Assembly (NCBI GenBank): GCA_008632985.1
Contig: QPGO01000176.1
Span: 17,778-81,777, forward strand
Direction of reading: 5' to 3'
Length of the DNA stretch: 64,000 bases
Origin: Psammoneis japonica
Taxonomy: Eukaryota
The stretch's first letter is position 1, and each line of letters opens with the position of its first letter. Shown here piece by piece: positions 17,521 to 62,612 of the stretch. Made by a program: the position numbers and the translations under genes. The notes below the pieces were generated by a model. The model saw only the letters and a list, made by a program, of their open reading frames with translations. It was not told the origin of the DNA and made no database searches.

Positions 17521-17860
17521 AGAATAAGGCGAGCGAAGCTTACAATTGAACCGCCCATTATTACAAACTACTCTCCTTGGTAGAGGGAGTTTTAGCATTA
17601 CTTTCGAACATACACACTTAGTCGATTGCAGTTGTACGACGTCGATGGACGTTCCTATGCCAGAATTGCAAAATATGCTTTGTATTGATATTCAATATTC
17701 AGATACATCTCAACTTGACTAGAGCATAGTACTCTACAGAATAAGGCAATCAAAGGGAGCCGCCGACTATTACAAATTACTCTCCCTCGTGCTCATCGAG
17801 GGAGCATTAGTATGAGTTTCAAACATACACACATGTGCTAGATGGACGTTGCTAGAGGGC
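17521..17860. repeat. Diverged tandem duplication (~220-bp period) with a GC-rich hairpin
   Basis: agaataaggc...tattacaaa.tactctcc...gagggag...aacatacacac...gatggacgtt occurs twice; hairpin ctccctcg-N7-cgagggag in the second copy. Confidence 0.65.
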
Positions 17861-26730: not shown

Positions 26731-27479
26731 CTCCAACGTCACCACGTACCTCCTACACGAAGGAATCAGTATTAGAAAATGACTTTTTCAATGACCCGAC
26801 AAAACGGAAGTCTGTGTAGAAAATGTACTGTTGAGGGTCGTGGCAGATCATTGCATGTCCATGTCGTATATTTTTTACGTTAAGATGCAGCTAAATCCGA
26901 CAGTTCAAATCCATGACGTCACTGGAGTCATTAAAAGAAGACACTGGCTGTCACTCGCGCGGCGGGGAAGCAGACAGACATCGGATGCGGAGCAGGCGGC
27001 GCGGAGGTACAGTAGGTACATATTTCCTCCGGTAAGCGATAATTGTCCACGAGGAAACACCGTGTTATTCTTTTTGGGCCGTACATCGTAGTACTGCTTC
27101 TACTCAAAATGGCTCGGAGGGAAAAGCATCCACGACCCACGTCAAAGCATCACATCACATGGAAGCGCTGCAGCGACGATGATCGCTCGTGCCGTCAACC
27201 ACTACTTCGCATAACGACGATACCCTATATCATGGACCCTCCTCCATTTAGTCCAAGCGTCCACTCAGTTGGTGCATTGGTGCAGGTGCCGCCGGAACAC
27301 CGCACGGGACGACCGACAGCACCGTAGTGAAGGTGGAACAGGCTTCGTCACGGGTTTCAACGCTGCCGATGGCCGAGTGAATGTGCGGTATACAGTCAAC
27401 AACAGACTCAGTATGGATGTTTTTCCAAGTAGACTCTCTCCAACATCATTGGCTGTTGATGAGGTCTTGGGGATTTGTG

Positions 27480-28180
27480 ACAGTAGCGTTTGCTCGTACC
27501 GAAAACGATTCTCAGAGAGGGGGGCGCACGTACAAGGTCGATTGTGCTCGTGCCGGTGGAAAGGTGAAGGCGAAGAAGGATTCGTATCGCCGTGTATGTG
27601 GGGCTATCAGAACATTCCACTATCCAAAGATCCCAGAGAATTTGTTGCGTCACAAAGGCGAGGATTATTTTCAGGATTGGAGGTTACACTATCGAATTCG
27701 GGGACGGAACGAAATCCGCGTGGGATTATATCCATATCATTCTGTTGGCAAAGATGGAAGCAGTTGCTCAGAGGGGAAACAACGATAAGGGGAAAGCGAG
27801 TACATCTTTTGTTCCAGTGGGATAATGCAACACCGCATATTGATTCGGTTCTCGTGGCCGGTGTTGATGGTGAATTCGCTCAACGCGGTTGGGAGCTTGC
27901 ACCGCAACCGCCAAACTCCCCACCTGTATTTCTTTCCAGCAATGGCTAAGAGGGTCACTGTAGACCAAGGGCTTGAAAATGGTGGTCGATATTTGCAGGG
28001 GGGGGCAGCTGTGGGCATCCTTTCGTCGCGTTTATGATCGCTATCCCGAGGGGACCATCTCCCGGTCGTTGGTGTACCACAGTCAAGTGGTGAACGCTGT
28101 TTTTGAGTGTGATGGGAGTGATGATTTCGAAATGGATTCGCAATCACTTCACTGTGGAATTCGGAAGTTTTTTCAGTGTG
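27480..28180 (+). pseudogene. Tc1/mariner-like transposase remnant (deleted and frameshifted)
   Basis: FHYPKIPENLLRHKG, FQWDNATPH, QPPNSP, FFPAMAKRV and LHCGIRK. Confidence 0.75.
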
Positions 28181-28711
28181 TTTCTGACTCGGAAGAGACG
28201 CAGAATCCCACCGGAGTTGAGGTGACTGAGCACCTGGATCCGGTGGAACAGAACCTGCGGTGCACGACGCCGGATGTCATTCGGGATGGGTACAATCCGG
28301 CAGATTTCTTGAGTGAGAATGAACTTTCAATGTTGGTGAATAATATGGACTAATCATGGAAGGATACTGAAGTGTATCCGATGGCGGAGCTAGAACAGAA
28401 TCGGGAGCTATGCGATGCCGAGGCGCACTTGGAGCAGGCACTGGCAGTGCTGTTTTGGAAGGTGAAATCTCTAGAGAATTGATAGCATACACTTAGAATC
28501 GGTACTAGAGTATCTATATTATCCTACTATTGCATCAAATTGGTATTTTATACAGTAGTCGGGCGAAAAGAAGCGATTCAATAGAGCGAACTCTACTCTA
28601 GAGAGAAGGTTTTAGTGGTTGCGCGAAGTCGCGCGTGAACAAAAAATATGTAGAAGCAGTACCATGATGTACGGCCCAAAAAGAATAACACGGTGTTTCC
28701 TCGTGGACAAT

Positions 28712-31700
28712 GGACTATGGAGATTCGGAAAAATTGGTCGCACTGTCCGTCCGTCACCAGGCATCGGAGGTCAAAATCTGCCGCGATGCTCTATTCGCAC
28801 CGGTACGAAGAAAGAGATTACACTGTAAGAGATCACATTCTATTGCGTCTAATTTAATGTTTAAAGCACTGGCTTAAACATAAAGTTGCACTGAAACCCC
28901 CAAGCAATCCACAAGTCAGCGGTCATTTCAAGATCCTGCCGCTGGTGGATGCCACCACTCATCATGCCACATGCCTTCATGCGTTTCACGGCTCGTCCAT
29001 TCACCGACTGATCACTGGCCACAGCTGCTGAGACAAGAACCTCTTCGCTGGTGAATTTTTTGTCACTTTTGGCAAAAAAAGGTTGGAGAAGCAGCTGCCC
29101 TCCGGCACGCCAAGCAGCAAAATGCTCCTGTGCCCCTTGTCCAGAACATTCGTGAAGGGCAAATCGGACGAAGCATCACGCTCCTGAAAATCTTTCTGCA
29201 CTTCCAACATTCCACTTTCTTCAAAGTGTTGAGTGTCAGACACTGCACCGGTCCACAAATCCCACCCACCCAACCAACCACACAGCTGCAGAAAAACCCC
29301 ACCCTTCCCCACATTGTTTCCACAGCAAAGTGAAAAGGTGAGTCTCTGCAGGTCGGCATCCGACGGCTTGCCCACAAAGTCAACATTTGTGTTGTCCCAC
29401 ATTTGCACCCTTTTGTCCGGGCAGTGATCTCTCCATTTTTCTGAGCACAACGCCATGTCCTCTGCATGTGTGAGAAATCTGGGCCAACTGCGCAGCACGG
29501 CAACAACTTGCGCGAGCTTGCGACGGAACACATCCCCAAGAGTTGTTCTGCTCACACCATGGGCACTCTTTGCGTCATCCCATCGCAGTTGAGATTTTTG
29601 CCACACCATCTCAAAGCACAAAAACCACTCTTCAAACCAACTCATGAGAGTTGTCTCAGTCTCCATCATCCTTTCAACGCTTCCATTGCACACAACTGCC
29701 ACGCACAACAACAGTTGTTGCACATCCACAAAACCTGTTCGTCGCTTGACTTCCTCATCACTCAGGTTAAAGGGTGTCACTGTCAGCTCTCTGTTCTTGC
29801 ATGCATTGTCGCGTCATCAGCAGCACTGATGGATTAAGTTCATCACGCAATTCAATCCGTCCTCCTTCCTCGACCTCAACCGCCTGCTGCAGCACTGGTC
29901 GATCTTCGCTTCTGCTTCAGATGATTGTGTCATCCCTTTCAGCAAGTTACAAACAAGACGATCAACGCCAAGTCCTTTCGACAAAGTGCCAGCATGAGTG
30001 CCCTCGCCGGTGCTCTTTGGTCCCACATTGTTCGGCACTTCAAATTCGTCGGTTGCCGATCGTGATTCCAGCATCGCTGTCTTGTCATCAACAAATTGAT
30101 GCTTGTAAGATTTTGTACCTTCACAATTTGATGATGCTTGCATGTCCGAATGTCCTTGTGATTGCACCTTCTGTCGCCACGTCGCATCCCCATTCGATCA
30201 AGGAATGTGTGACGCTTGAAACGCTTTTTGCAACAGGTTTTCCAACGATCTTCTGACACATGCCCCCCTTGTTCCTTTGGCTTTGGCGCATTGGGCATGG
30301 GTGGCACGCGGCAGCCACAATCATTCTGATCAAGTGGGGCACCGCAATTTTGATGCTGGCACACTTTCCCAGCAACCCACGAAGATGGTCGCACTGCAGC
30401 TCTCGGTGGCTCGGCGGCAGCTGAGTTTGGCTTGCTGGTTGTTTGTTTGACCCCTGAAGCAACATTGCAAGACGTCAAAGAGCTGCCGATTTTTGCCTGT
30501 GTTTTTTTCGGGTCAGTCGCCGACTTGCAAAGCTTGTTGAGGTGTTGTCTGAAGCCGTCGTCCATCATTTTGATGCTGTTTGTCATCGCTCCCAATTCTT
30601 GGGCACGCAATTCTAGCACACGGTGTCCAGCCAGGTTCCAGGCATCAGGATTGCATTCCTTGTGCAGTGCATCTGCAGACAAAATGTGACAGAGACGCCA
30701 CGTGCTGATGTCATCGCGGGCGCATGTGTCATTCAACTCTGGGGACTTGCACCTGGTTTTAGAATCGCTGGCCGCAGGAGTCTCTTTCTTGATTTTTTGT
30801 TTCGCTTTGTCTTCAGGTGTTTCTCTCTGCAATTTCGGATTGGTCCAAGCTTTTGTGGGTCGGGCGGATCCGGAGTGGTTGTTCTTCCGCCTCGCTTCTC
30901 CATTGCCACCTTGAAGTGGTCAAGCAGATCAGTTGGTTTCTCGAGGTCCAAAGGCACGTCAGGAAGGTCCGCAGCTGCCATCAGCATTTTAAGAGACTCT
31001 GCCACAGTGCCTTGATCGTCAGAAGTGAGCTCCTTCTCATCCACTTTCGAGAAAAACGATGCCATCTCCATGAGTGCGTGTTCAGCAAGCCCATCCACAA
31101 GCAATGTCGTCAGTTTGTAAATGACAGGCAAACAATGCACACACGCTGCATGTCGTTTGATGTCCGAGTTGTTTTCAGAAAACGTCTCAGATTTCTTTTT
31201 CTCATCTCCAGCCTTGCAGGTGCAGCATGTGCATGCAAGATCTGATGACGCAATCGCAGTTGTGACTTCATACATCCCATCTTTAAAAGATGGAGGTGTG
31301 CTGCCATCAAGAACGAGTCCCACTTCACCGTCTTTCTCGAACATTTTACCATGAGCATGAGTTGTTGGTGGGCATTTCGAATCGACAGCATGACGAACGC
31401 ATCGCTTCATCAACCTCTCACCGCTGTCCGTCCGCGATCCTTTTGCAAATTGGATGATGATGTCTGGTGAAACCTCAGCTGCTTGTGGCATGTTTGGGTC
31501 TCTCTTAGATTCGAAAGTCACGAGCTTCGCAAGCAAATTCACTGTCTTGCACCGGTGCGCCGACGACAGTTTCTTGTCACCGAGAAATCTGGCTCCATCC
31601 TTCAAATCAAACGTGGCAACAATTGACAAGGTTCCATCATCGAGTGAATCGGGAGACAGACTTGGACAGCTGACACTGTCAATGTTGAATGTGTCGTCGA

Positions 31701-33667
31701 CTCCATCCTTTTCAACATGCAGAGAACACAGCTCCTGCAGTTCACCCATTGTTGCTTTGGCAGGTGCTTCAATCTCACTGTCAAGAGCTGTCCTCAGCTC
31801 GGCGTTGGTGAGGAGTGAAATCGGGTCGGCTTCAGCATTGCCCTGACAGTCACACTGAACACAGAGTTTGTTGTCTTCTTTCGCAGTGCACACACGACAG
31901 AACACGATCACACTTGGCGCACGTTGAGTGGCCTTCACCCGACACAAACGCATGCGATCGCTCTGGACGAGCACCAGGGCATACAAGCAAGTCACTGTCC
32001 TCTTTCACAAGAGCAGTTGATGGCGCAAATTCACGAATGTAGTTGGAAATCGGCTCCAGTGGCGCTGCGGCAATGGCGTCTTTTCGCCCGACTCTGACAT
32101 GTCGGCAGGCTCATGCACCATTGCCTCCACGAAGGCTGTTGTCGTTTCCTTTGTCAAGCATGTGAGGGCTGGGTTGGCTTTGTTTGCACTTGGCATGGAG
32201 TCAAGGACCTCATCAAGGAGATCATTGTAACCCACGTTGGGCAACACATTGGAATCCACGCTGCCTTTCTCGCGCACGCGTTTGAGCGCACCTTCCAATG
32301 CCGAGTGCGACATCTTAGAAAAGAATGCATGCTTTTTCAACTCTGCTGGCAAGGTGTCACTGCCCAACACAACTCCAATCAAGCATCTTGTTTTCATGTC
32401 TAGTGTCCCATCAAGCAATGGTGGCTTGCTTGGTGCCTCACATGCCATCCGGCAGGTTCATTGGGCGGCACAGCACCCTTGTTGGTTTCAGCATGCTCCG
32501 TGGAAGTGTCATTGGCAGTGTCATTGGCAGATGTAGTCACATTTTCAGCAGCCGCCAGACCAGCCGTTGCAGCAGTCACAGCCACCCCCATGCTCTCTGC
32601 AGGAGATGCACTCGCCATCGAAAGTCCAACGGCATCACAACAAAATGCGACAGTCTCCCTGAACGCCGTCGCAATGGTGACGCCTCCGATTGCATGCTCT
32701 GGTTGTGCATTTTCATTCACCACCTTGCGCTTTGCCTTTGCTTTGCAGGATTGAGCTTGAAGTCTACAATCTGAATGCAAGCCCCGCCGGCAACAAAAGA
32801 AAAGTCACTGTCATTCCCAACCGCCGTGTCAATCCTATTCTGAATCAGCAGTTGCTGAATTTTGCCATCTGCTTGAAAAGCCCCATGGACAATTTCCAGC
32901 TCACCCGGGTGATTCATCTCCAAGTCTTGAACCGCACTCTGCATGGCACTCATGTGCTCCGGTGCAAGGCGGCTTAATGACTTTGACTCACAACTTGCAA
33001 CTTTCCGTTCCAGGTCCTTCCTCTTCTGGATGAGTGGCTTCTTGTCGCCAACCGTTCGATGTGTTTCAAGCCGCAGTGTCTTGCTGATCGATGAGATCTG
33101 TGCTTTTAACCGGATTGCCTCAACAACACTCCTGTCACACTGGATGTCACGAGCAATCGTAGCCTTCTTTGAGTGGTGCCGCCCAGACGGATCCACAATG
33201 ACGTAGACATGACACCCTTCCGCAACAAGAGCTTTGAGAAAACCACAGAGCTTGTTCTTGGCATCATGCACAGACGTTGAACTCTAAGCTTGAAACACAA
33301 CCAAGAAAAATCCACACCAACCGCTGGTTTTCCCTGACGGTCAGCAGCGGTGGCTTGCTTCGAGCACATGCTGAACACTTGACCGCCTGACAGTTTCTCA
33401 ATCTCACGCAGGATTTGTGACCCACCGTTGATTCCCATTGCTGCCAATCAAAGCATCTGTGCAATTGAGGCGGCATTGACAACAGACTGCCGTGATGCTG
33501 CTGCGAGTGAGGCAAAGCACGATCTGCTGCTTCCGTTCAGACTGCTTGCATTGTCATCATCATCAGCGACGTGGTGTGACTTTTGGCATGAATTTTTTGT
33601 TGTTTGAATCAATGAACTGATGGAAGGACAGGCCGAGTGCAACCATTTTTTCAGATCTCCACAGTCC
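28712..33667 (-). mobile_element. ISL2EU/PIF-Harbinger-like DNA transposon, 4956 bp
   Basis: Imperfect ~33-bp TIRs ggactatggagattcggaaaaattggtcgcact and ggactgtggagatctgaaaaaatggttgcact. AT target duplication at 28710-28711 and 33668-33669. Excision restores the mariner TIR. Confidence 0.85.
28861..33438 (-). pseudogene. Transposon coding region: XPG/FEN1-like nuclease, SWIM-like finger and DDE_Tnp_4-type transposase; frameshifted
   Basis: Nuclease: MGING, GVDFSWL, VIVDP..HHSKKAT, AFQADG, GNDSDF, VVLGSDTLP. Finger: CTCKAG...CVH. Transposase: WDNTN, GAVSD, VLDKGHRS, ending WGFQCNFMFKPVL*. Confidence 0.75.
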
Positions 33668-36110
33668 ATTGTCGCTTGCCGGAGGAAGCAGGTGGGCCCC
33701 ACTCCCGCGGAGCGTTGCACTTTTCAGTCTGGCCAGCAAATTTTTCTACGCAATTTCTGCGTGCCACATTAAATTCTACGCAGCCTTGGCACTTGTACAA
33801 AGCACCTCACGACGCATCGCTCCCCGCTGATGCTCACCATGGCACCGATGCATTGTCGTTTGTTGTGCAGTGCTGAACAGGATTCAGTCAACTTCCACGC
33901 AACGGGGTTCACATAAAAGCAACAAATCACAGGAGCAAAATGCAACCACTGAGGGAGAGAATCTTCAACTGTCAAAACCAAGCTGACTTTGCAGAAGCAG
34001 CGGCCATCAAATTTGCTGCACGCGGATCCCCACCTTTCCGCCTTCATTGAGCGTGACAATGGAACAGGCCACCAGGCATGTTTCGCCATTCTTGTTGAAA
34101 TGACATGATTCCATGATCATGCGATCGCCCAAGGCTCCCAGACAATTGTTCTCAAAAGCCTGGGAATCCAAAATGAAGCAGACAAGACAAATGGTTGAGT
34201 GTTCTTGGAGAGCCAACAAGAACGGATCGCCCAAGCACCAATCAGAAATCAGATGCTTCTTGGAAAAGCTTCCAGAAGACACTTGCCAAAAGCAGACACA
34301 AGCACAAATGAAATTTGTCGAAAAGCATGTTGTGCTTCCCTTCCAATGACCAGCTCCACACTGAAAAGAACCTTTCGTGCACTGCCTTTAAAGAACTCGG
34401 TGCAAGAACATCCTGCAGGCAATGATTCAGTCGGTCTGGCATCCCTTGGAATGGATGCACACACTGTTGAAACCTTTGGCAGGACGTGGGAAAAGAATGT
34501 GAAGGAGCATCTCATCCATCAATCCAGAACGAGCCCAAGTCTCAGCGCGCTCGGGTTGGTCAAGCGGCGTTTCCAGGCATTCCAAATCCAGGTGCAACAA
34601 AGAGGAGTGTTGCATCAACTCAAAAGACTTCAATTTCACTCCTCTGTCCGGCGTTGTTGACACATCGAAAGACAAGGCAAAACAAGGGGCAAGATCTGAC
34701 ACCACAAGAGCGAAAGAAGTCAAAGGAACGACGAGTCACAAAACAAAGAACGAACACACCACCAGACAATGTGACGACCACAAACGCACATTGCCAGGGT
34801 GACAACTCGACTCATGCTCTGTCATCCATTGCTCATGCTCATGTGTCAATGATGAAATGCTGTGCATTGGAGTGCCAACCAAAAAAGAAGGTAAAATGAA
34901 AGAAACAAAGTCAAAGGATGACAAAAAAAACGAGTCATCACACCACTTCAGTCGACGGCACATTTTGCAACACACGCGGCATTTGTCGAGACTGGGCCAA
35001 CGCTTGCACATGACATGGACAAAGAACATGAATCTCATGCATGACTCACCCCACAAAAAGACGCGACGACGACGGTGCAAACGACGCAACAGCGCCATGG
35101 TGTCTGCGAGAAAAATTTGCAGAGGCTGGTGCAAAAAATTGGTCTGTAAGTCATTCTCCGCTTTTTGATTTTTGCTGACTGGCCAGATTAGCTCAGCAGT
35201 GAAAAATGTGACGATCGGTGGGAGGTCTTTCTCTTCCTCTTCTTCCCGCACCAATTGCAGACCTCCCAAGCCGGGAGTGGGTGGGCAGGCCCCAGCAGAG
35301 GCAGGCGATGCAACCATTTTTTACAACATCACAACTGGGCATTCGCATCAGGATCAGGCAGGGAGCAGGGATTGAGGACCATGGCTCATGGCTTGGCCCG
35401 CCTCCGCGGGCGGCATCCGCTCGATCCACATGTTGGGAGTTGGGAGCGACAATCACTGCACCACATGTCCTTCAGCCATGTCTGAATTGGAAAGGAGCCT
35501 CTCGACTTTGCAGTCAGAGATCTTCTGGAAGACTGAGACTCTTGCCTTCCGTGCACAAAGTTTTTGCCTTGGCATCAACAGAAGCAGTCTCCCCACATTC
35601 CATCGACGGCACAGGGAGACTTCCATGTGTTGCAAGCAATCGAGTGGGCCTTCACGACGCCAACCACAATCATCGTCGGCTTTGTCATTTGCGGGGCAGC
35701 GGTCGACTCGTGCTCGCAGCGGTTGACGTGATTTCTGCCAGCTCAAATGAGTTCCCGTCCATTCCAGTGGCAATGCCAGACAAGACGCATCAACACACAG
35801 CATGCATGCTGTCGACGCCCATCAGCTGTACGAAAACAAACCTGACGGCCGTGGTGGTGCCCCTGGCGGTGCCATGCTCAAACTCGATGCGGAGCACCCA
35901 GAAAAGTCCGACTCGTTTTCCTTTGCTCCTTTGCATTTTACCCAAAACGGGGAGCAGACGTGACCAATCCAAACCAAGAAGGCAAGGGGCATCTTGTTGC
36001 TTGTGTGGTGAATGGATGAGACCTTGCAACAGCCTTCATTGTTTTGGATGTTGAGGGGGGGGGGGCGATGCGGAGCACCCAGAAAAGTCCGAGTCGTTTT
36101 CCTTTGCGCC
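28890..36110. other. TpA-depleted domain with CpG largely retained
   Basis: Covers the ISL2EU-like element interior and extends ~2.4 kb beyond its right end. Confidence 0.85.
35615..35720 (-). pseudogene. Short duplicated fragment of the adjacent ClpS-like gene (source ~37001-37120)
   Basis: DDDCGWRREGPLDCLQHMEVS versus source DEDYDWRREGPLEYLEDMEVS. Confidence 0.85.
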
Positions 36111-36124
36111 TTTGTATTTTGCCC
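35885..36124. repeat. 59-bp direct repeat (35885-35943 and 36066-36124)
   Basis: cgatgcggagcacccagaaaagtccga.tcgttttcctttgc.cctttg.atttt.ccc, 4 mismatches. Confidence 0.9.
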
Positions 36125-36667
36125 TTGACACTGTTTCCGTTTACGTAGCTGGGTATAAAGGAAGGTGACATTCCCTGGCCTCACCACTTCCACAAGCTTC
36201 ACACCATGAAGGGCGTCCCAGCTTGGTGAGCACAGGCCATGAATGCCAATGCATCTGCACGAGCGATGAGAGCGCGGCCTTGATCCGTCGGATCTTGGAT
36301 GCCTTTCCATTGCCATCGTCTTTAAAGCATAAACATGATCTCGAATACGCCGCACCTGTGCTGTAGTCGTCATCTTTATCTTTACAATGACATTAAATGT
36401 CTACACGTGGACCTTTCTTGTGCCCACTTAGCAGCAGTCTATCATGGCCAACTTAAAGCTACTGTAGGATACGATCTACCCACTAACCCTTAACACTTCT
36501 ACTATAAATCCAGGTGCTTGCAAGGTACATGGCTTTATAGAAGAGGTAGGATTGCAGTACGATGTACGATCGCTTTTATTCTGCCAATTTTGGGACACTT
36601 TTATTGGTTGAGGTTTCAGACAACAATCTTCTAATTACATTCTAGCAACTGATGCCACGATTCTAAT

Positions 36668-37249
36668 CTAGTTGAATCCCTCAAAGTTTCCAGACTTGGA
36701 AGCTCCTCCACCAGCATCCTTAGCTTGCCATCCACGCTGTCCGCCTTCGCAATAAGGTACAACACGGCAGACAATGTCTCGTACTTGAAGCTGCTTACCC
36801 AGCGCGAGGCACTCCTCTCGCTTCCACGTTCCCAGACATGACATTCCGTGTTCTTGAGCAAAATTCGAAAGCTCTAACGCTTCCAAGGGAGGCATATCCA
36901 AGACATACTCGAGTGAACCCGAAACATAGTTGACTGTGATTTTTGGTTTCTCAAAGGTTGCGCCCAACAGCAGAATGTGAAAGGGGTCATCGTCTTCACG
37001 AGAGACTTCCATGTCTTCCAAATACTCGAGTGGGCCTTCACGACGCCAATCATAATCCTCGTCGGCTTCATCATTAGCGGGACGTGCCGTCCTTTGCTTA
37101 CGGTCGACTCGTTCTCGCGGTGGTGCTTCGACGGCAGGCATCATGGTAAGCGGTGTTCGGGGAGAAGCTACAGACGCAGTCCAGGCTGAAGTTGACGCAA
37201 GCAGCAAGGAAAAGAGCAACACAGTGGACCGTGCAATAGACCGTATCAT
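36668..37249 (-). CDS. ClpS-like adaptor protein, probably plastid-targeted
   Basis: Signal peptide ending STSA-W followed by a Ser/Thr/Ala-rich transit region. ClpS-fold pattern PFHILLL...YVSGSLEYVL..P..EA....AQEHG.SCL...REE....QL...CRVVP. Confidence 0.7.
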   Translation of the reverse strand: MIRSIARSTVLLFSLLLASTSAWTASVASPRTPLTMMPAVEAPPRERVDRKQRTARPANDEADEDYDWRREGPLEYLEDMEVSREDDDPFHILLLGATFEKPKITVNYVSGSLEYVLDMPPLEALELSNFAQEHGMSCLGTWKREECLALGKQLQVRDIVCRVVPYCEGGQRGWQAKDAGGGASKSGNFEGFN

Positions 37250-40200
37250 GGTGGTGGTAGTTGATTGCATAAGGAAGTACTTGTACAACAAACGCAAAAG
37301 AAGAAGCGGCAAGAATGTGTCAGAGCATTGCCAGAAGGAAGCGGAAGCTGAAATTCGGTAAGGACAGATGGTACGTACGTAGAACTCAGTATATTTTTTA
37401 CGTGTGACGTGTTCAAAGAGAGAATGAAGTTCTTATTTCTTAGCATTTGTTTTCGATCTCAACATTATTTGAGAAAGAATAGTTGGGTCATGCACGATAA
37501 GAAAACGCGACTACATTCTTCTATTCACTCTCTATTCTACCAGCACTATCTACTGACCTGCTCTTACTTCAGCTCTCTACAGTATGAGTAGCTAGTAGCT
37601 CTCTCTACTCTACTCGCTCTGTAGCAAGAGTAGAGAGAGAGAGATCTACTCTCTACCGGTGCTCTCTAGCTAGACCTACAGTACTAGCTACTCTACTGGA
37701 GGGCCTAATGTCGACTACACTGGCAATGTAATTCTGCCTGCCCAAAGCCATGCATCGTGTGTCCGCGTAATCATTGGCGACTTGAAGGTCGAACTGTCCT
37801 ACGAAAAAGCAAGCCTGGACATCGTCATTTCCAAGACCCCAGCTCCATCTGACACTGTTTTAGCCGAAGAGGGTAAGTTTTATTCGCACTCATTCTTGCA
37901 TACGCAGTGCCGGATCCCGGGGCTATAGACTGAGCACAAAACCAGCCAGTGTCAGAACCTAGAGTAGAGCTTCCAAATGCTCAATGTCTTCCCAAGTCTG
38001 GACCATAAATTCCGGCATGATCAAAACAGTCACACGGGAAAAGAAGAATCACATCAAACGTTGAATCGTAGAGACAACAACAGACCTCAGAATGCCGGTG
38101 AGACGAAACACAATGGATCCGTCCGCATCCTATCCTGCAGGTGTCTTCAACAGTCCCGCCGACAACGATAATGCTGCAACGAAATAGCCCGTCAAGACCC
38201 AGTTCAGATCTCCCAGCGACAATGTCATTTCCTCCACCTTCATAAACCGACATTCAACATAAACCCATATTCCTCCTCAAGCAGCCTTCTGTTCAAGCTC
38301 GGATTCAGGCGTCTGGTCCTCTCGGTCCAAGAATCAGGGGCGGAGAGTCACGGGTAATAGGAGGCGAATAATAGGTAGGAGAAACGGCAATCGGTCATTT
38401 CTTCGAATCCATAGTCAGTAGGCCCTAGTTAGCTGTGCCCTGTCGACATCGCCGCCCTCATCCGTATGGCACTCTCCATTGCTAGTATTTGCAAGAAGTC
38501 ACACATCAGAATGGCCCAAAAAATCCACCAAATCTTGTTACCAGCAATTGTTCCTTCGGCTTGGGAACCTGAACCCGACCAGACGACAACCACGTGAAGT
38601 TCACAGATTTCTGTCCGGCTAGTGTTTGGTTCTTGCTTATGATTTTCGAATTCAACAAATCTGCGCTACTCGATGAATAGTCGAGAACAAGCTCATTCAA
38701 GTCGCATCCAAAAAGCTTTCGAATTTGGCTTACTCTTGGTCGAGTTCACACAAGTGTAGCAGTTGCTGCACGTTCAACTAGCCCAACCATCAGCAACGAT
38801 CCTACCCGACGAGTCCACGCGCAGTTGCTGCAGAATGAGCGAATTATGTGCCTTATCCACCTTGGCGGCATTGCCGGCTTCGACATATTCGAACCCACCG
38901 CCTTGGCCCTCGTTCGAAACAAGAGTCGTATCATCTTCTCCGTCAATGTTGCATTTGGTACTGTTATCATTCTCTTTGGAATGTGTTTTGGAGACTTGCC
39001 TGTCCATCCTCCGATTCCATCTCTCGCTCTTGATATCGCCATCTCCGCATCAATTTCTTCACCCGCATCTTCATCTTTAAACTTTTCTTCAATGACAGCA
39101 GCATTGTTTTGCTGTTGTACGATGCTTATTCAACGTAGTCATACGCAGCCCCGCCTTGAATGTCAATGGAAGCCACATCTCCGTCGATTGCCTTTATTCT
39201 CGTTTCATGAATTCCAACAGCTTTGGCATGAGCAATCTTGCAACAACCTTTGCAATGACATGAAGCCTCAAACCAAATGCTTTCTTCGATTCAATCAGCA
39301 GCATGTACCTTGGGCGTCACCTGGAACGCCCGCTCCCAGTTACCATTCTCACCACGACAACCACCCTACCCCGAATCGCGATCTCTAAAGAGCATGTGAG
39401 CTCAGAGCATGTTATAGTCCAGACATAGAACTGCAACTCCACTAAGTATCATCAAGTAAACGTGTGCATAAGAATCTCAAGGATCAATCAATCCTCCAAG
39501 CTCCAAGCTTCAAGTTGTGCAAGTCTTGCTGGACACAGCGTCCACGAACGAGAGAGCTTTGAGTCTCAGTGGTGTCCTTTTGCTGGAGATGTATCCGCTC
39601 TTGTCAGATGTGATGATCATGGGAAACAGTGTCAATGGATTTCACCAGAAGTCACTCCTTGCCGGTAGGAGGAGGAGGACTCGAGACTCAAGGGGAGGTG
39701 GAGTAACATCCGAGCAACAAGGCTTGTCCCGCAACAATTCCATTACGGCAACTAACTTATACGCAAATTCATTCGACAGAAATTGGCGAAGTAAAGAGTA
39801 CCAAAGGATTCACTAAGCGGCACTTGATACGACGTAGTTTGGTGATGGGAAAAAAACGCGAAGGAACGCCATGGTGGGCGTTGTAAAGAAACACAGAAGC
39901 TCGCAGTAGGCTGTAAAATAGACCTCGTAATGTGACACGTCATGCATGCGTCATTGTCACGTGCGAACTTCCGTCCGTCCGTCCGTCCTTCCAACCACAC
40001 TGCCCTTCAAGCCCTGCCGGTTGCCGGTGCAACCTAAATCTAATCAGCACAATGGCGGTCAATTCAAACCAGACTTGACTACGCTCACGTGTTCACATGA
40101 CACAAAACTCGTTCATTACCATTTCACAATCACATGGGTTTCTTGGCATCCAAGGCTGCTCCGCCAGAGTGAGAGTCGTCACAACTTTTTTCTGCCAGCA

Positions 40201-40949: not shown

Positions 40950-41920
40950 TTCTCAATGCAGCAGGTGTCGCCCGTCCTCGTTCATGTCACAGCAGCAGTC
41001 CATTTCATCCTCTGACTCAGTGGCAGGCATGTCAATGTCAGTCAAAGAATGTGAAGCCTTGGCCATTTCTTTGGGTGAAAGAGTGAGTGCAGAGCAACCA
41101 TCCAAAAAGAGGCGGTGGAGACTCGGCATCAACAGAACCTCTTTGAAAATTTGAGTCAAGGTCTTGCAGCCGCCCTCATTCAGCTCTTCTGGCTTCTGAA
41201 ATGATGCCACTGTGGGAGGCAGCTCTTCAAGATCACGAGCAAGAAAAGCACAAATTCAAGGTGACCAGATTCGACAGACTGCTTGTGCCAATGCTGTTCA
41301 AGAAATCTTGAGGACAATGTGTCAATCCAAATGACAAGCAGAGATCTTCGAGCTTGGACAGCTGACCAGTCTCAACAGGAATTTCAGTGAGGCTGTTGCA
41401 ATGGCCATGGCTGAGTCTGTCCAATTGATGCAAGAACTGTCCAATTCCTGGGGGAAGCTGAGTGAGAGATTTGTGCCAGTTCAAGCTCAACTCTTCCAAA
41501 CTTGTCAAACAGATGACATCATTTGGCAGCCCCTCAAGATTTTTGCATGATGACAAATTCAATTCTTCAAAACGCAAGAGTTGATCCAAACTACGAGGCA
41601 GTTGTTCAAGCTTTTCACAACCGCTGAATGACAATGTCTTCAAAGTTTGTCAGTTGTCCAATCTCATCAGGCAACTCAGTCAGGCTCTTGCAATTGCAAA
41701 GGTGCAGCCATTTGAGGCTTGCCTGTCATCCAATCTCATCAGGCAACTTGGTCAATGTCTGACAATGGGAAATGAGTGGCTCTTCCAGGTTTGTCAATTG
41801 CCCAATCTCTGGAGGCAGTTGCCAGAGATTCAAACAATCCTTCAAGTCCAACAAAACCAGTCAGCACAACATGCCGATTTCAGGCAGTCCATTCTGCAGC
41901 AACGTCAAGCTGGATTTCTT
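40950..41920 (-). pseudogene. Leucine-rich repeat protein relic (LxxLxLxxCxxLxxLP type)
   Basis: LSFSGCEKLEQLPRSL, LNLSSCKNLEGLPND, SLTQLPPGIG and CNSLTEIPVETG; repeated LPDEIG; stops and frameshifts. Confidence 0.8.
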
Positions 41921-49260: not shown

Positions 49261-50959
49261 AAAATTTTTATCTCAGCTCGATGTCACACGCACAGACAAC
49301 GAGACACAGCCGTCCAGGCCAGGGCAGCGCCTCGCGCATCATCCTCACACGTTCTTCAAGCGCGTTCTTCACATTTAACATTTTCAATAATTTCGCGACC
49401 ATGACAACCGCAAGTTGATGAAGAGTTGAAAAATCACAACGACACCACGCAAGCAATCAGTTGTGTGCTTGTAATGGTGCTTACTTGCTATTTTTGGAGA
49501 CTGCTACATTCATTTTCTGTGTGCGATTCTACAATAATTTACTGCAGTGGCATTTACCGTTTCATCGTTACAGACAACAACAAAATCACTGCTGCTTCAG
49601 CACGTCGACGCAGCGACGAAAATTCTTTGGCCACATCATTCGATTCGACTGATGCTCATGCTGAGAACGATGGAGATGAAAATTATTACGATACTGTGTT
49701 GTCGGCTGTCTACGATTCCGTTTTAAAAGCCCACTGCACCCATACTGTATCATACGCCCTTGCTCTTGGAGCCTCCCTTGCCCTTACTCTTACCCTTCGT
49801 TGGCGCATGAGTAGGTTCTGGCGTAGGTTCCGGCATAGGTTCCGGCATATGTTCCGGCGTGGGTTTCGCTGTAGGAGCCGGGGCTCGTTCCTTGGGTTCC
49901 TATGATACCCTTGGAGGATGATCCACCCTTGCCTTGGAAGATGATCCACTTGTTGTTGCTTTTGTGATCTGCGATCGGTAAGTTTCGGGGGAGCAGCGAC
50001 ATTCAAAAATGAGTCTTCGTGACACCTACAGTTTGGACACATGCACAAAACACGTACCAACATTCAGGCAGCTAGCACGGTTCACCGTGGAAATGTGGAA
50101 AGAAGTGACAATATCGGTGGCGCAATTCAGAAGAAGAGCTTCCCGGTATTCCCTTAAAGCGAAATGCAAAGACATCCGAGACCGCCTTTGGTGGGAATCA
50201 AAAAGAACGCCTTTTCCGTTTCCGAGACGGCGAATTGCGACGTGGAGGGATTGGCAAGCGACAAGGCCGCGCTTGGGGCAACTGACTTTTCTCTAGTTCA
50301 CGCCGTGTACTGTACGATGCGTACGGTCCGAACAAGGCGGGGCTCCTCCTATTTGCCCAAAAATATGACTCTCCGAGCAAGATCCATTGTTTTCTCTGTA
50401 TTATGGATTCTTTAAGGATGGAGCCAATTCGGGATCCATGCTGTGGTATGATCTGTGCCGCTTGTTTTAACTCACTCATGACTATCATTGCTGCGTTCGT
50501 ACTCGTAGCGCCAATTCATGGCTATGCAATTCGCGGTGTGATGGCGACGGGTCTTACTAATACTTGTACTGTATATCAAATCAGTGTTGGTCAAAAGATG
50601 CTGTATATGGGCATTATCTTGTCGCCAAGAAGTTTCTTTGGCACAAGTTGGATGCATTGTAGGCTTGAATCTAGCCTCGATGGAAGTCAGTCGAGCGAAC
50701 CGGCTCGTAATTCGCAGAGGCAGTCGCCTGCTGCAAGTGCGCAGCCAGACTTTGCCGCATACTCTTTGCGAGGACGAGCTACAGGAGACGAGCCGGGGGA
50801 TGACATGGACTGGATGGATCGGCATGTCCCAATTTTCTATCAAGCTCAAGAACGACTTTTCACGTGCTGGCACCACCATACATGCATACGCCTCATCCGA
50901 TTCTTCATACGACTCGTCGGAAAATTCGATCCTGAGTGTTTTGGAGGACACTCATCAGG

Positions 50960-51313
50960 TCGCCTCTCATGAAGACAATGACCCATTTCACATTCTACTG
51001 TTGGGTGCAACCTTTGACCTTTGAGAAACCAAAAATTGCAGTCAATTGTGTTTCGGGATCACTCGAGTATGTCTTGGATATGCCTCCTTTGGAAGCTTTG
51101 GAGCTTTCTAATACTGCTCAGGAACATGGAACATCGTGTCTGGTAACGTGGAAGCGAGAGGAGTACCTCGCGCTGGGCAAGCAGCTTCAAGTACGAGACA
51201 TTTTCTGCCGTGTTGTTCCCTACGACTATTGTGAAGGCGGACATCGTGGATGGCAAGCTAAGCATGCTAGTGGAGGAGCTTCCAAGCCTGGAAACTTGCA
51301 AGGATTCAACTAG
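50960..51313 (+). pseudogene. Inverted duplicate of the 3' half of the ClpS-like gene
   Basis: DPFHILLLGATF...VSGSLEYVLDMPPLEALELSN...GFN*. A 7-bp duplication (cctttga) shifts the frame. The 3' UTR is also homologous. Confidence 0.9.
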
Positions 51314-51872
51314 AATAGAATGGTAGTATCACTTTCTAGAGTGTATTTAGAAGGTTGGCTGCACGATGGTTATCTGAAACCTAAACGAAGTAAAGCGTTG
51401 CTGATAAAATAAATATGGAATGGGTAGGTGCCCCAAACGTCTCACTCTACCGGTACAGGCGGCTGCGCACGGCCAACGAGGGAGTGCTAGCGCCTTAGAC
51501 TACATTGAATGGAGTGTACCAGCGCTTCCGCAATTCGAAGTGTGGGAGGAATCTTTGGCGTACAATGTAAGCGATCCACGCCTGCAAATCCAAAATGTAG
51601 GGCTACTGGTGTCCTAACACCACTTGCACTTTTGGTAGCAATAGCTATTGCTCTCGTACTTGTTCTTTTCCTTTCTTCTCTAGCGACAAACAGGAGACAA
51701 TGAAAGACCGCCAATCAACCACGGTTTCCAGAACGCAATGGGATGCGCAAAAGATTTAAGCGAAGCTTTCTAGGACTTGGTTGCCTTTGCAATCTACTTC
51801 TACTGTAGAAAAGGTCAACACTATACCAATCTCTCGAGATGAGTGACTTTACCTATCTAGTTAAAAACTAAC

Positions 51873-57717: not shown

Positions 57718-57974
57718 TTTTTTGTTTCACAAAGCAAAAACGGTGGACTCGAGGAAATTTTTATTACACTGCAAACGAATTGAAATAATGTGTAGAGTAC
57801 AGTAAGCCAACAAGACTGTATCAACAAACAACGCAACCGACGCAAGGAAATAATGAAATAATCATCTTTTCGTCACTCGCATCTCGCAACCTGAAATCTC
57901 CAAAAATCGAGTGCACAAGTTTGTGGAGTTGAAGATCCAGATAAGGTAGGTAATGAGCTCAACGATGACGTAGT

Positions 57975-60900
57975 CAGTCAGCAAAGGTGGCTGTGGCTGG
58001 GTCAACAGCTGGATGCTGCCATGCAGGCAGAAGAAGTCTGTTGCCAACAAGTGCCCCAGCAAGATGATGCGCGCGATGACAAACACAGGAGCCTTGGAGG
58101 TGCGGCAAACAAGTTGAGGCAAGAGGATGGCAGAGAGTTGCAGCAACTTTGTGAGCAGATTCTTGAGTCACAAGCAAACCTGTTTTTGCTTGCAACTTGC
58201 AACGTTGTGGCTCAACTTGGGCCGAGCTCTTGACAGACACTTCTTGCGTGCCCCAGCAATCGACGAGATGTTGAAACCTCGCCATCCACTCAACTGCTCC
58301 AGCAAGAGCTGCCCCTCTTCTCTTGGGAGAGCTGCTTGGAAGTCTTTGAGGCCGGCTCTTTTGTTCTGCTCCAGCTCTGGTTTGCAACATTGTGAATGTT
58401 TTTTTTGTCTTGCATCACAGGCATGTCTTGCGTGTGCTCTTTTGCAGAGTTGTTTTGTGCTGCCTGCTTTGCAAAGCCAAAGATTTTTTGTTTTGTGCAC
58501 TTGCACAAACAAAAACATGCACCCGGTGCACCCCTGTTCAATGTGTCTGGTTCCATGAAGAGTGAAGAGAGCAACACAAAGTGTGGATGAGTTCATTCAT
58601 TGACAAAATTGTGCCTTTTCTGTTGGTGATCATCGTTGTAGTTTCACTCTACAAGAGCTTTTTTTGTGATTGCTGTGAGCACACTGTGGGTGTGGCAGAG
58701 TGCATTGTGGCTTCATGTGCTTTCACATTTTTGTGCAAGAAGCGTTTGTTGCATGAGGCGCCTGTGCTGTGCCTCGCACATGCATGATTTGCCCCTGGCA
58801 GCCCATCCATCTGCTGGCACAAATGTGTCCAATTGCATGTGTTGTCAGTTTGTCTGTTTGTTTGTTTGGTTTCAAACAATTTCATTTTTCTCTTGACGCA
58901 AATCAGAAATCGACACCATGTGTGGTGCTCCAATTTTTTGCTTTTGTGACATCTGCAAAAGTGCCTCACAAGCCCAAAATGCCCACATGAACAAATTTTC
59001 CACACTCAAAAACACACATTTTCACACTTTGTGTTCAAGTGACGTTTGGCTGTGCCACAGTGGTCTTTTAAAGTGTGCTGTTTTTGTTCAAATTTCCAGC
59101 ACAAACTGCCCTCATCATCTCCCACCTTGCCAGAACATTCCCTCCTGTGACCATCATTGTCTCCCCACTGAAATGCAAAGAGAAGAGACAGACATTGGAG
59201 CATTCCTGGCTGTTTGTGATGACATGCCCAAATCACCATGTGCTTTCAGAGAAGAATTCCTGAAAATTTCAGGTGATTCTGCCATCTGCCAGTGATGCCA
59301 GTGAGGCCACAGTCGTCCTGCTGCCAACCACAAAGTCTAAAAATTGTTTTTCCCACTCAAAAAAGAAGCCACTGGGTGGTGTGAGTCTGTTTGTGGAAGA
59401 ACCACACAGCATCAAGAATCATGTTCTGCCTTGCTGTTTGACGCGGTCCAAATGGAAGGCACGATGGTGGCTTGTCCGCAGAAAATGAACAACAGCTGGT
59501 TTGCAGTGAAGTGGGGTCAGTTGTCAAGGTTGCCTCGGATCATGCAAAAAAAAAAATGTGCAACAACTTTGACAGTGACAACCAAATGAAAGAGCAGCTG
59601 AAGAAAGCAACGCTGCCCTGTGATTCGGTGAAAGTGGGCACAAAGACTGCACCATGCAATGGCGCAAATGCCGCCAGCATCCCCAAGGTGTCAAATGAAG
59701 GAAGCCCAGTGGGGGCTGTCTCTTTTCCCAGAACCCCTCCCACTGTCACAAGAGCTCAACATGCAGCCACTTTGAGGACCACTGGTTCTGTTGCTGGGTC
59801 CACTGTCAGCTCCCTCAATCACAGCACCAGAGCATCATTTGCTGGAGCAAGCGATGCACCAACTCTGCACAGCGATCAGTCTGGGTTGATTCAGACTCTG
59901 ATGATGGTTTTGACTGTGATCCTGAAGACAATGCTTGGGTGTGGGAACCATTTGTGGAAACCACTGACAGCCATTGTTGTGATGATGACAACAAGGACAG
60001 CGCTGATGACAGCAGCAGCAAGGAGGGTGCAGATGATGGCAACACAAGACGCGCCAGCAGACAAAAATCAGATGCATCCCATCCCTCTGATTGTTCTAGA
60101 TCAGTTGAGAATCTTGTTTGGAAGCATGAAGCCTGTGAGGAAGGGGGACTTGTTTGCAGAGGATGAATCTTCCCACCCAAATGAGCTGCACTTGGGACCA
60201 CATGGGCTGCACAATGGTGTCGCAACCAAGTTCAAGACTCCAACTGAGGCAGTTGCGTGCTGTGGCAGTCTTGACCATTGATGTGTTGCAAGGCTGGCTT
60301 CAAATTTGAATGACTGCTTCAGCAAATTCATCAAGCCTGGCCTTGGTGAAAATGGTTGTGGCATTCAATGAAGTGGTCGCCCATTGTCATGGAAGAAATG
60401 CACCACTTTCTTGGCATGGTGCTGGAGGCTGTGCTGCCTGCTTTGCCACTGAAGAGCTTGTGTTGTCTGCTGGCACAGGGCAAGACAAGAGAAAGAGGTG
60501 TGTGCCCAACACCTTGGCTTTTCCACGAAGCACATGTCATTGCGCAGGTTCAAGCAGATCCACGGTGCTTGCCATCCAGAAGACAAAGCTGCATCTGCAG
60601 GGATTGACAAATGTTGTCAGCTTCAGCACTCTTTAAATCAACTCAGTGCTGCTTCATTGCACACCTTTGTTCTGGGCCGTTGTTTGATTTTTGACAAAGG
60701 CGGCATCAGCTGTCGATTGCAGTTTTGTCCCATGCACAGCAATGCAACAAAGACAAACCCGGCAAATGCAAAGTGTCACTTCATCATTCACATGGATGTC
60801 TGCCAAGGTGAGAATGAAAACAACTCATTCATTGATGAAAAATGCCAGATGCTGCCCACCACACAGAAGGCCATCGTCAATGCAGTGGTGAAGTTGGGTC

Positions 60901-61935
60901 TCCATGTGCCCTCAGAGCATGGGTGGAGACACATGGCTCTTGACAATCACTGCCAATGCACTGAGTTGGCAGCAATTTTGCACAATGGGCGCAAGATGCA
61001 CAGCATGGGGACTGCTTGCCAGAGATGAAAAGGGTGGGACAAGGCCAAGATGGACTTGCAAAACAATGCAGAACATTGCAAAACAGCTCATGACAAAGCA
61101 AACAAGATGCAGCTTGTGCAGTGGTGTGACAGCAAAGTGGCAAATTGTGTCACCACGCTGGTGTCAATGGAGGCCACAATGGTGAAGTGTCAGGTTGGGA
61201 AAAACAAACTCGAGAGTTCAAGTGCCCTGTGCCCCTCACAATGCACCAAGACACAATGCAGGCCATTGATGCTGGGGACCAGCACCGACCCCATGGCGGA
61301 GGATTTGCCAACAAAGCTCATGGCAAAAAATGGCACAAGAAAGCCTTTCATGGGGTGAATGACTTTCAGCTGTTGCAAGGTTGTGCTGGTTGGGAATTGT
61401 CTTGCAAAGAAGTGGCCAGGAGGACCCAGTTCAAGCAATGGCAGTTTATGACATGGGTGGCACAAGACTGTCTTGATGTTCAAAAGTCCTGACCAACATG
61501 TTGTGTGGCGTCCGATTAGAATGGCGGTCGGAGCTGCCGACAAAAGAGCAACCACAGTGGCGTCCTTGCCACGCGAACAAACAAGCCTGTCCCTGCGACT
61601 TCAGCTCACAGTGAGTGTTCAGTTTGCCAGTTGGAAACAAACCAACTTCAGCAAGGCCGTGCACCAAGGAGGATTAAAGAAGTCAGCAGTTGCTTGTGAG
61701 TGCTGCGGGGTGTGTTGGCCCACAACTTTGTCCCCATGGACAACCAATGGAAAATGCACCGCCAGCCAGAGTTTGAGGGAATGACTTGCTTTGAAATCCA
61801 TCACTCTCAGCTGGGAAAAGAAATCTGGCCTTTCAAGAGTGACAAAAGAGACGGGAGACACAAGCCGTCATGCTCAGTGAAAGGGACTCATCCCGTCGTG
61901 GTTCGACTGAAAGAGATGCACAAGGATGGAGCGTG
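57975..61935. other. TpA-depleted domain containing a piggyBac relic
   Basis: TpA nearly absent; abrupt left edge near 57975. Confidence 0.85.
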
Positions 61936-61936
61936 A
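60150..61936 (+). mobile_element. piggyBac transposase remnant
   Basis: MSLRRFKQI, FDKGG (cf. xDE), DVCQG, ALDNHC, VQWCDSKV, HQDTMQAIDAGDQ and KKWHKK; frameshifted; element ends not located. Confidence 0.8.
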
Positions 61937-62065
61937 AATTGTGCATCTTTAATTTACGTGGAGAAACAATGTTCTTCATCGTGCAATGTATCATCACATC
62001 ACATTGTACAAATCCGTCACGTTGCCAACTGGCAAGGAAGAAGGTTGCGCCGTTTGGTGGCACGG

Positions 62066-62395
62066 TGGTGGGCGCCAACTTATTGCTGGTGCTTGCCAGT
62101 AGTAAGTTTGGCCCGTCACGGCACAAATCTATTGCTGGTGCTTACCAGTAATACATTCGATCATCACCACTCGGAAGATGGCGGGCGCCAGCTTATTACT
62201 GGTGCTTGCCAGCAATAAGTTTGGCCCGTCATGGCACAAATCTATTGCTGGTGCTTACCAGTAATGCATTCGACCGTGACCCTTCATCACCATACCACTC
62301 GGAAGATGGTGGGCGCCGACATATTTCTGGTGCTTGCCAGTAGTAAGTGTGGCCCGTCACCGCACAAATCTATTGGTGGTGCTTGCCAGTACTAA
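62066..62395. repeat. Three tandem units (periods ~113 and ~128 bp), each with two imperfect palindromes related to tattactggt-N4-accagtaata
   Basis: Units start near 62066, 62179 and 62307; probably piggyBac subterminal repeats. Confidence 0.85.
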
Positions 62396-62612
62396 ATTTG
62401 AGAAACAAAGAAATCAAACTTATCAATGGAAGTTACCACCTACACGCTAAAGCCACAACAGGTGCTAAGCACTGTCACCACTTGGCTTGAAACCCGTGTA
62501 CGGTTCATCACGTGTCTGAGGGTACAAATCAAGTATCTCCCTGTGAATACAATCCGGAAGCTTCGTGGTATGCACAAGGTCACCTTTATAACTTCTTCAC
62601 GTTACATATAAA

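Follow-up and report, generated by a model that had tools for sequence, protein, structure and literature searches.

A transposon terminal repeat split by a nested insertion as a probable before-and-after record of local TpA hypermutation in the diatom Psammoneis japonica

Why does one end of a transposon in the diatom Psammoneis japonica read TpG and CpA at the very places where its other end reads TpA? The question arises in a window of 64,000 nucleotides (contig QPGO01000176.1 of assembly GCA_008632985.1, forward-strand positions 17,778 to 81,777; coordinates below count from the first letter of this window), in which a Tc1/mariner-like element, here called the host element, has had its right terminal inverted repeat (TIR) split by a second, nested DNA transposon. 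The inner part of that TIR lies in ordinary sequence, while its outermost 19 bp lie beyond the nested transposon and inside a domain that has lost almost all of its TpA, as judged by the ratio of observed to expected dinucleotides (o/e). On balance, we consider it probable that the split TIR is a natural before-and-after record of local hypermutation, in which TpA was turned into TpG or CpA (A:T to G:C, on either strand). The features needed to follow the argument are these, with the evidence for each:

27021 to 27022, no strand: left target-site duplicate TA, read from the sequence; TA also ends the loose-end consensus of 12 other copies.
27023 to 27103, plus strand: left TIR of the host element, 81 bp, unedited, with 8 TpA including the flank (self-BLAST, alignment).
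27023 to 28711, plus strand: Tc1/mariner-like body of the host element, ending where the right TIR is broken (TA o/e 0.69, CG o/e 1.04; open reading frames [ORFs] decayed).
28650 to 28711, minus strand: 62-bp inner portion of the right TIR, which the depleted domain does not reach; 60/62 positions match the left TIR.
28712 to 33669, minus strand: nested DNA transposon, 4958 bp, with its own TIRs of ~45 to 55 bp (TIR alignment, homologs, joining contig).
28882 to 35950, no strand: TpA-depleted domain, 7 kb, class B in our annotation (TA o/e 0.09, CG o/e ~0.72, CA/TG o/e ~1.55).
33670 to 33688, minus strand: displaced outer 19 bp of the right TIR, in which both TpA read TG (alignment).
33689 to 33690, no strand: right target-site duplicate, CA instead of TA (alignment).
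33699 to 35279, no strand: high-copy nonautonomous element, called R, ~1.58 kb (TA o/e 0.09; depth and sequence).
35288 to 35950, no strand: low-copy flank within the domain, 663 bp, with 3 TpA and a depth of 94 to 126.

The reverse complement of 27021-27103 was aligned with 28650-28711 joined to 33670-33690, without gaps, over 83 columns. Flanks included, 77 of the 83 columns are identical, and the six differences are T>C in column 14, C>T in column 16, A>G in columns 64, 71, and 81, and T>C in column 82. When bases were coded as purine or pyrimidine all 83 columns agreed, and therefore all six differences are transitions. Self-BLAST recovered the inner portion independently (28650-28711 against 27103-27042, 96.8% identity over 62 bp, 60/62). 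Within the outer 21 bp (33670-33690) all three TpA are lost, two as TA>TG and the one in the flanking target site as TA>CA, while both CpG are retained, and the single further difference is in column 81, the last base of the element (A versus G). Within the inner 62 bp (28650-28711), four of five TpA are retained, and the lost one lies in ACTACGA>ACCATGA, which combines TA>CA with CG>TG. The original prediction, which had read this locus as a direct record of TpA editing, gave the same TG, TG, and CA readings, the same two intact CpG, one other difference, and four of five inner TpA, and all of these facts proved correct. The chance of at least 16 matches among 19 at a fixed place is ~1e-7, and the chance that three random substitutions remove three different TpA by transition is ~2e-4; the contrast between losses of 3/3 TpA in the remnant and 1/5 in the inner part gives a Fisher probability of ~0.07, calculated by hand.

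Other copies of the host element bear on which letters are original. Among the 12 of 232 loose ends and 40 of 821 difference places listed from a comparison with contigs of public sequencing runs of the same organism, 12 contigs break off just before 27024 at the left TIR, with a consensus end of T-A-C and an overall agreement of 0.44. This suggests that the host family duplicates TA and has C as its first base, in which case the difference in column 81 would have arisen in the left TIR, and nothing but the three TpA would set the remnant apart from its family. The left end of the element, which is 1.7 kb long, starts at 27023 directly after TA, and its summed contig depth is 450 to 1050, compared with ~57 for single-copy sequence, and it is therefore multicopy. 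Duplication of TA (TA at 27021-22, with CA at 33689-90 taken as an edited TA) and 81-bp TIRs are features of Tc1/mariner elements, and this portion of the earlier assignment to mariner is borne out; membership of Tc1/mariner itself was confirmed by no profile. The host transposase matched no Pfam family at E values of at most 1 and no homolog at E values of at most 1e-3, the one weak lead being an Atlas similarity of 0.77 to clusters with DDE_3. Its 244-aa ORF holds what appear to be DNATPH and PPNSP-like motifs. An exact search for a 28-base piece of the TIR in metagenome contigs of the Joint Genome Institute (JGI) gave no matches.

The remnant lies in a depleted domain, as had been predicted. 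After the TA at 28881 there is no TA for 887 bp (to 29768), where ~39 would be expected, and TA o/e is 0.09 across 28882-35950. The nested element (its left 170 bp excepted, which hold 10 TpA and are not depleted), R, and the low-copy flank all have this TA ratio, with CG o/e values of 0.71, 0.72, and 0.75, respectively. The same TA and CG ratios in three unrelated kinds of sequence, together with the sparing of the adjoining multicopy host element, uphold the earlier claim that editing is positional. The claim that editing postdates the nested insertion also holds, by parsimony, since the domain has its left edge (28881) not at the junction between nested element and host but 170 bp into the nested element.

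The nested element is flanked by AT/AT (28710-11 and 33668-69), and one contig from the public runs joins 28709 to 33668, omitting 4958 letters, with 2 letters fitting both sides; an uninterrupted TIR is therefore present elsewhere in the genome. Target-site duplications of 2 bp are typical of ISL2EU elements and of 3 bp of Harbinger elements, and the duplication found here is short, of the PIF/Harbinger-ISL2EU type. The gene of the nested element (~1500 aa, broken) runs on the minus strand from ~33438 to a stop codon at 28861-63. A HMMER scan with the last 270 aa of its protein returned 742 relatives with E values of at most 1e-3, and 15 long relatives align along 28852-33438. The homologs show 49 to 54% identity, with E values down to 6e-60 and 6e-77, and all three of those scanned contain DDE_Tnp_4 (PF13359). 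Conversely, the element's own frames have no Pfam match, and the tyrosines of its catalytic domain are mutated in the window. No close paralog of the transposase was found in protein collections, where the best hit has 54% identity. Among 192 relatives, a single protein (P0049) has less than 1% Tyr (0.9%, with 5.3% Cys and 4.4% His), and this protein may come from a copy that was edited in some other organism.

Another transposon, which had been missed earlier, adjoins the remnant on its right. R begins just past the CA of the remnant and an 8-bp repeat; it is flanked by GGTGGGCC (33691-98) and GGTGGGCA (35280-87), which match at 7/8 positions, and has the short terminal inverted repeat CACTCCCG. 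Four contigs run off at 35279, and the summed contig depth over R is 1150 to 1600, where single-copy sequence has ~57. At 34958 and 34976 the window has G where other copies have A in 14/14 and 12/12 contigs. The low-copy flank beyond R holds a fragment (35601-35695) of a paralog of the ORF at 36668-37432. An inverted pair at 36624-37006 and 50962-51357 (85% identity) lies in ORFs 36668-37432 (minus strand) and 50286-50972 (plus strand), which belong to no Pfam family; these two ORFs form a small local gene family, with the edited fragment as its third member. A 59-bp direct repeat (35885-35943 and 36066-36124, 93% identity) straddles the right edge of the domain; its inner copy reads GCAT where the outer copy reads GTAT, yet the inner copy also has TA where the outer has TG.

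The direction of change can be read from tyrosine codons. In an alignment of the nested DDE domain with 60 homologs, Tyr is the consensus at nine columns, and at none of them does the window have Tyr: it has Cys at four, His at three, and Phe at two. Among columns conserved at 70% or more, 52/68 are kept, compared with 0/6 of those that conserve Tyr, and five of these six changed through a single TA>TG or TA>CA step; 5 of the 16 changed conserved columns lie beyond residue 233, where a frame shift makes them uninformative. The 15 long homologs give the same picture, with Tyr kept in 24/332 aligned pairs (7%), Phe in 46%, and Trp in 80%. Outcomes at Tyr positions include 54 Cys and 50 His, nearly equal numbers, and therefore both strands were struck alike. 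The paralog fragment in the low-copy flank likewise shows Tyr>Cys twice. Together with the T-A-C consensus of the loose ends, the Tyr columns back the polarity proposed originally and support TpA as the ancestral state, from which TpG and CpA are derived. Changes of A>G or T>C falling on TpA are thus seen in the outer TIR, in the Tyr codons, and in the summed dinucleotide frequencies given below.

Loss of TpA depends on the neighboring bases. Relative to normal sequence, survival is 0 to 3% for ATAN, 0 to 8% for GTAC, 6 to 17% for CTAG, 13 to 19% for CTAA/TTAG, and 42 to 67% for TTAA, and the effects of the two strands roughly multiply. The values fit an attack on the A of 5′-TAN, with N in the order T > C >= G > A; an attack on the T of NTA is an equivalent description. 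CpG is lost most where T or A precedes it and least in GCGC. Such a context rule would suggest the specificity of an enzyme rather than selection.

At ~55x word depth, contigs from the public runs carry the same TpA-free sequence; over 29139-29654, for example, they depart from the window at 2 of 516 positions. A longest contig of 315 kb in the run speaks for accurate reads. Inside the domain, 25/28 of the listed differences make or break TA or CG, compared with 6/12 outside. At 30370/1, 30526/7, and 30574/5, adjacent double differences on single contigs are CA<->TG swaps, two of them within 132 bp of a deletion derivative of the nested family; these swaps indicate that the same former TpA (or CpG) was resolved on opposite strands in two copies. 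Furthermore, residual TA at 30117 and 31983 in the window are TG in the run. The copies were thus edited independently after they separated, and some of this editing is probably recent.

These observations can be arranged in a putative order of events. A transposon that duplicates TA and carries long TIRs would have inserted first, after which the 4958-bp DDE_Tnp_4 transposon would have entered its right TIR 19 bp from the tip, and the 1.6-kb high-copy element would then have inserted 2 bp past that tip. Subsequently, a process acting on the contiguous stretch 28882-35950, and not on any one element, would have erased ~90% of its TpA, including those of the stranded tip and of the target-site copy. 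Conversion of CpG to TpG or CpA, which is mild in 28882-35950 and nearly complete in other domains, would reflect a slower, ordinary decay of methyl-CpG in silenced mobile DNA. Taking the sequence differences, their polarity, the uniformity of the domain, and the independent editing of copies as given, we infer the chemistry only tentatively. The likeliest route may be deamination of adenine in DNA by an ADAT2/TadA-like deaminase, by analogy with what has been proposed for the chlorarachniophyte Bigelowiella natans.

Several points weigh against this account. The remnant alone is weak, since it holds just three TpA, and its weight comes from its agreement with the surrounding depleted domain; moreover, the state of other copies at these three TpA is not among the 40 of 821 difference places listed. 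The adjoining multicopy host transposon (TA o/e 0.69) is untouched, as are the 10 TpA in the left 170 bp of the nested element itself, which adjoin the domain; the domain is therefore set by neither copy number nor element identity. Loss of CpG may belong to the same process or to a separate one. Finally, in the parts of the study available, amphioxus ADAT2 favors GAA rather than TA for adenine in DNA (PMC10354150).

Of the alternatives to local hypermutation by adenine deamination, the one that fares best, which we nonetheless regard as unlikely, places the initial damage on the other base. Thymine in TpA would be oxidized to 5-hydroxymethyl- or 5-formyluracil by a TET/JBP-type enzyme and would pair with G, giving T>C, with A>G as the same event on the other strand. 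Oxidized thymine mispairs with G, and in some protists TpA is enriched in such bases. Since TpA is palindromic and the outcomes are about equal, the attacked base is indistinguishable here, and the context rule can be written for either base. Against this, nothing in the window bears on base modification, and the sole published account of the signature, in the parts of its text available, proposes adenine deamination (bioRxiv 10.64898/2026.01.13.699255).

We give only a slim chance to inherited composition, whereby the nested element and R would have been free of TpA on arrival and the three changes in the remnant would be unrelated substitutions. Nonautonomous elements can move whatever their internal sequence, and R is present in high copy. 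However, the 663 bp of low-copy flank have equal ratios (TA o/e 0.09, CG o/e 0.75), the changes in the remnant are transitions that fall on TpA in three of three cases, and the left 170 bp of the nested element are not depleted. In addition, two TG/CA swaps in 132 bp of the deletion derivative are about what independent editing would predict.

It is also very improbable that no dedicated machinery was involved and that TpA and methyl-CpG decayed slowly, in a context-dependent manner, in silent chromatin. Decay of CpG in methylated repeats is ordinary, and TpA is already somewhat scarce in the normal sequence of the window (o/e 0.64). Yet 52/68 conserved residues are kept, compared with 0/6 Tyr, which means that change at TpA greatly outpaced change elsewhere; the domain ends abruptly, with 10 TpA in 170 bp and then none in 887 bp; and the signature arises de novo in B. 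natans at ~1000-fold the background rate, as reported in the available parts of the preprint (10.64898/2026.01.13.699255).

An artefact of sequencing or assembly, such as base-calling errors at modified bases, is barely credible, and we dropped it. Window and run contigs do differ mostly at TA, CG, TG, and CA dinucleotides. Errors of the CpG>TpG kind occur at methylated sites in some long-read assemblies. However, contigs at ~55x from the public run carry the TpA-free sequence and differ from the window in both directions, which is strong but not absolute evidence against an artefact. Least probable, to the point of being negligible, is the reverse polarity, in which a process resembling repeat-induced point mutation (RIP) made the TpA-rich sequence by CpA>TpA and the TpA-free blocks are original: all-transition differences alone fit either direction, but Tyr codons conserved across 60 homologs are Cys or His in the TpA-free copy, the housekeeping genes of the window sit in ordinary TpA/CpG sequence, and the loose ends of other copies have a consensus that closes with TA, and we rejected this polarity on the Tyr-column and conserved-column tests.

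The domain at the split TIR is one of seven depleted blocks in the window, which measure 1.8 to 7 kb and make up ~40% of its length, with TA o/e of at most 0.1 and CA/TG o/e of 1.5 to 1.9; the window thus contains discrete, clustered blocks that are poor in TpA and rich in CpA and TpG. One class of block mostly keeps its CpG (TA o/e 0.08, CG o/e 0.71), and the other is also poor in CpG (TA o/e 0.03, CG o/e 0.15). CA/TG o/e is 1.57 to 1.85 in these classes, compared with 1.17 in normal sequence. The sum of TA, CG, TG, and CA dinucleotides, calculated by hand from the o/e values, is conserved (0.242 versus 0.245), and base composition is unchanged in depleted blocks (0.261/0.239), with GC content equal or slightly higher in edited blocks. 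A conserved sum at conserved composition fits transitions of TA to TG/CA and of CG to TG/CA. A self-comparison of the window in purine/pyrimidine code for pairs of edited and unedited repeats revealed nothing beyond ordinary BLAST pairs.

As for content, one block contains the DDE_Tnp_4 family, one a piggyBac-type DDE_Tnp_1_7, one a high-copy element, and one a leucine-rich repeat (LRR) fragment. Pfam searches with 15 + 50 ORFs of the other depleted blocks returned only the piggyBac match and a subthreshold LRR match, with no family for the other 48 ORFs of the second set. The LRR ORF (41236-41649, minus strand; LRR_14, E value of 4e-08, under the Pfam cutoff) lies within a block free of TpA and CpG, so edited sequence is not all obviously transposon. 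The block at 57971-61950 is nearly free of TpA and CpG and contains a decayed piggyBac-type transposase (DDE_Tnp_1_7, E value of 5.5e-07, 60453-61028) with a Cys-rich tail up to 61936. In this block CpG is back from ~61500 while TpA is absent to 61949, and the TpA-poor zone is therefore wider than the CpG-poor zone. A search with the piggyBac ORF against PDB sequences gave no hits, which leaves the CpG-poor class without a residue-level test of polarity. Just past this block, a tandem repeat with a unit of ~113 bp and inverted subrepeats (62064-62401) may be the terminal region of the piggyBac element.

The two blocks with transposase genes are placed alike. In the nested gene (minus strand) the stop codon is at 28861-63 and the last TA at 28881, with depletion beginning upstream, at 35950; in the piggyBac-like gene (plus strand) the stop codon is at 61934-36 and the first TA at 61950, with depletion beginning upstream, at 57971. 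In both cases the 3′ edge lies within ~20 bp of the stop codon, the 5′ edge lies 2 to 2.5 kb upstream of the gene, and the 3′ untranslated end and TIR remain rich in TA. A block may therefore correspond to a transcription unit, which gives a lead to transcript-based targeting from two cases.

Depletion also affects annotation. Since depleted blocks have lost TAA and TAG, stretches of 100 to 400 codons stay open in all six frames, and 53 ORFs of at least 90 aa were counted in 10 kb. Gene finders and ORF lists are unreliable in such blocks, and transposases there escape profile searches. Normal parts of the window contain uninterrupted genes, for a GH47 mannosidase, an ornithine-decarboxylase-like protein, Cpn60, a LETM1-like protein, and a PPR protein; the closest named relatives of the GH47 protein are from diatoms (60 to 70% identity). 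At 436-1330 there are 895 consecutive N between two exact copies of a 57-bp repeat (379-435 = 1331-1387), probably an assembly gap with duplicated edges; this run explains the low GC of the first 2 kb.

Among known systems, RIP in ascomycetes, with its RIP-like TCG>TTG counterpart in basidiomycetes, shares with these blocks regional, near-saturating transitions at dinucleotides, the ruin of mobile elements in place, and leakage into unique DNA. RIP, however, changes C to T at CpA and creates TpA, whereas here TpA is destroyed by A:T>G:C, GC is not lowered, and an adjoining multicopy element is spared; C>T at CpA, gain of TpA, and loss of GC were not found. Hyperediting of repeat double-stranded RNA by ADAR likewise favors A>G after a 5′ U/T. 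ADAR is a metazoan family. It acts on RNA, and adenines without a preceding T are largely spared here, unlike in ADAR editing. We dropped ADAR editing of RNA copies as an explanation, since the change is in the genomic DNA of cut-and-paste transposons and their flank and affects both strands equally.

Some enzymes also bear comparison, as far as the available parts of the respective sources show. Diatoms have DNMT4 enzymes, of unknown function, that are relatives of RID, a RIP factor of fungi (PMC9998398). Amphioxus BjADAT2 deaminates both A and C in DNA, with the motifs GAA (in Escherichia coli DNA) and TCG (PMC10354150), and Trypanosoma ADAT2 also deaminates DNA, as cited in 10.64898/2026.01.13.699255. 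The cytosine motif of BjADAT2, TCG, resembles the loss of CpG in the window, which is strongest after T or A, whereas its adenine motif, GAA, differs from TA. The neighbor-base rule described above (TAT > TAC >= TAG > TAA) and the sharp edges of the blocks offer fingerprints for finding the enzyme and its targeting signal, and a natural TA-specific adenine editor of DNA, if confirmed, would be of interest to the base-editing field.

The nearest parallel is the hypermutation of TpA in integrated giant-virus and virophage DNA of B. natans (Mettrop et al., 2026, bioRxiv 10.64898/2026.01.13.699255), which we describe from the available parts of that preprint. In mutation-accumulation lines, two integrated viral regions accounted for 231/302 nuclear point mutations, and 230 of these 231 were A>G or T>C, all at TpA; rates were ~1000-fold above background, and mutations occurred in 11/15 lines. 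The genome contains 124 clusters of windows poor in TpA and rich in CpA and TpG, and its TpA-free coding sequences are enriched in DDE endonuclease and reverse transcriptase domains. Its authors propose a defense, RNA guided or set by chromatin, with an ADAT2-like DNA adenine deaminase (10.64898/2026.01.13.699255). Our literature search turned up neither an account of TpA loss in diatom transposons nor any case beyond this preprint, and a term search of its available text found no mention of CpG, trinucleotides, flanks, or diatoms.

The two cases agree in A>G/T>C changes on TpA, in confinement to discrete blocks (some of which hold mobile DNA here), and in TpA-poor clusters rich in CpA and TpG, and by this analogy the phenomenon in the window appears to be of the B. 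natans kind in a second, distant lineage, a diatom here rather than a chlorarachniophyte (Rhizaria). A saturated footprint in a diatom suggests that the process is old or recurrent among the major marine phytoplankton, where it could shape how transposons die. We can only speculate, and think it doubtful, that diatoms and chlorarachniophytes share a heritable DNA-editing defense in which a nuclear deaminase aimed at a chromatin stretch or transcription unit edits the A of 5′-TA (next base T > C >= G > A), and perhaps the C of WCG (W being A or T), until hardly any TpA or CpG is left in the block, its unique flank included; if so, genome defense would for the first time be traced to a natural base editor of adenine in genomic DNA, one widespread in SAR (stramenopiles, alveolates, and Rhizaria). 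The two cases also differ in what each records. In B. natans the process was watched as it happened, with TpA about halved in the giant-virus insert (Rho of 0.45), whereas only the end state is seen here (o/e 0.03 to 0.09). Beyond what the available text describes for B. natans, the diatom window adds the joint loss of CpG in some domains, the neighbor-base rule, the spread into low-copy flank, and a split TIR that dates the change: with one half inside the block and one half outside, this TIR serves as an internal control of a kind beyond the reach of the mutation-accumulation study, fixing the direction of change, the primacy of position over element, and the order of editing after two insertions.

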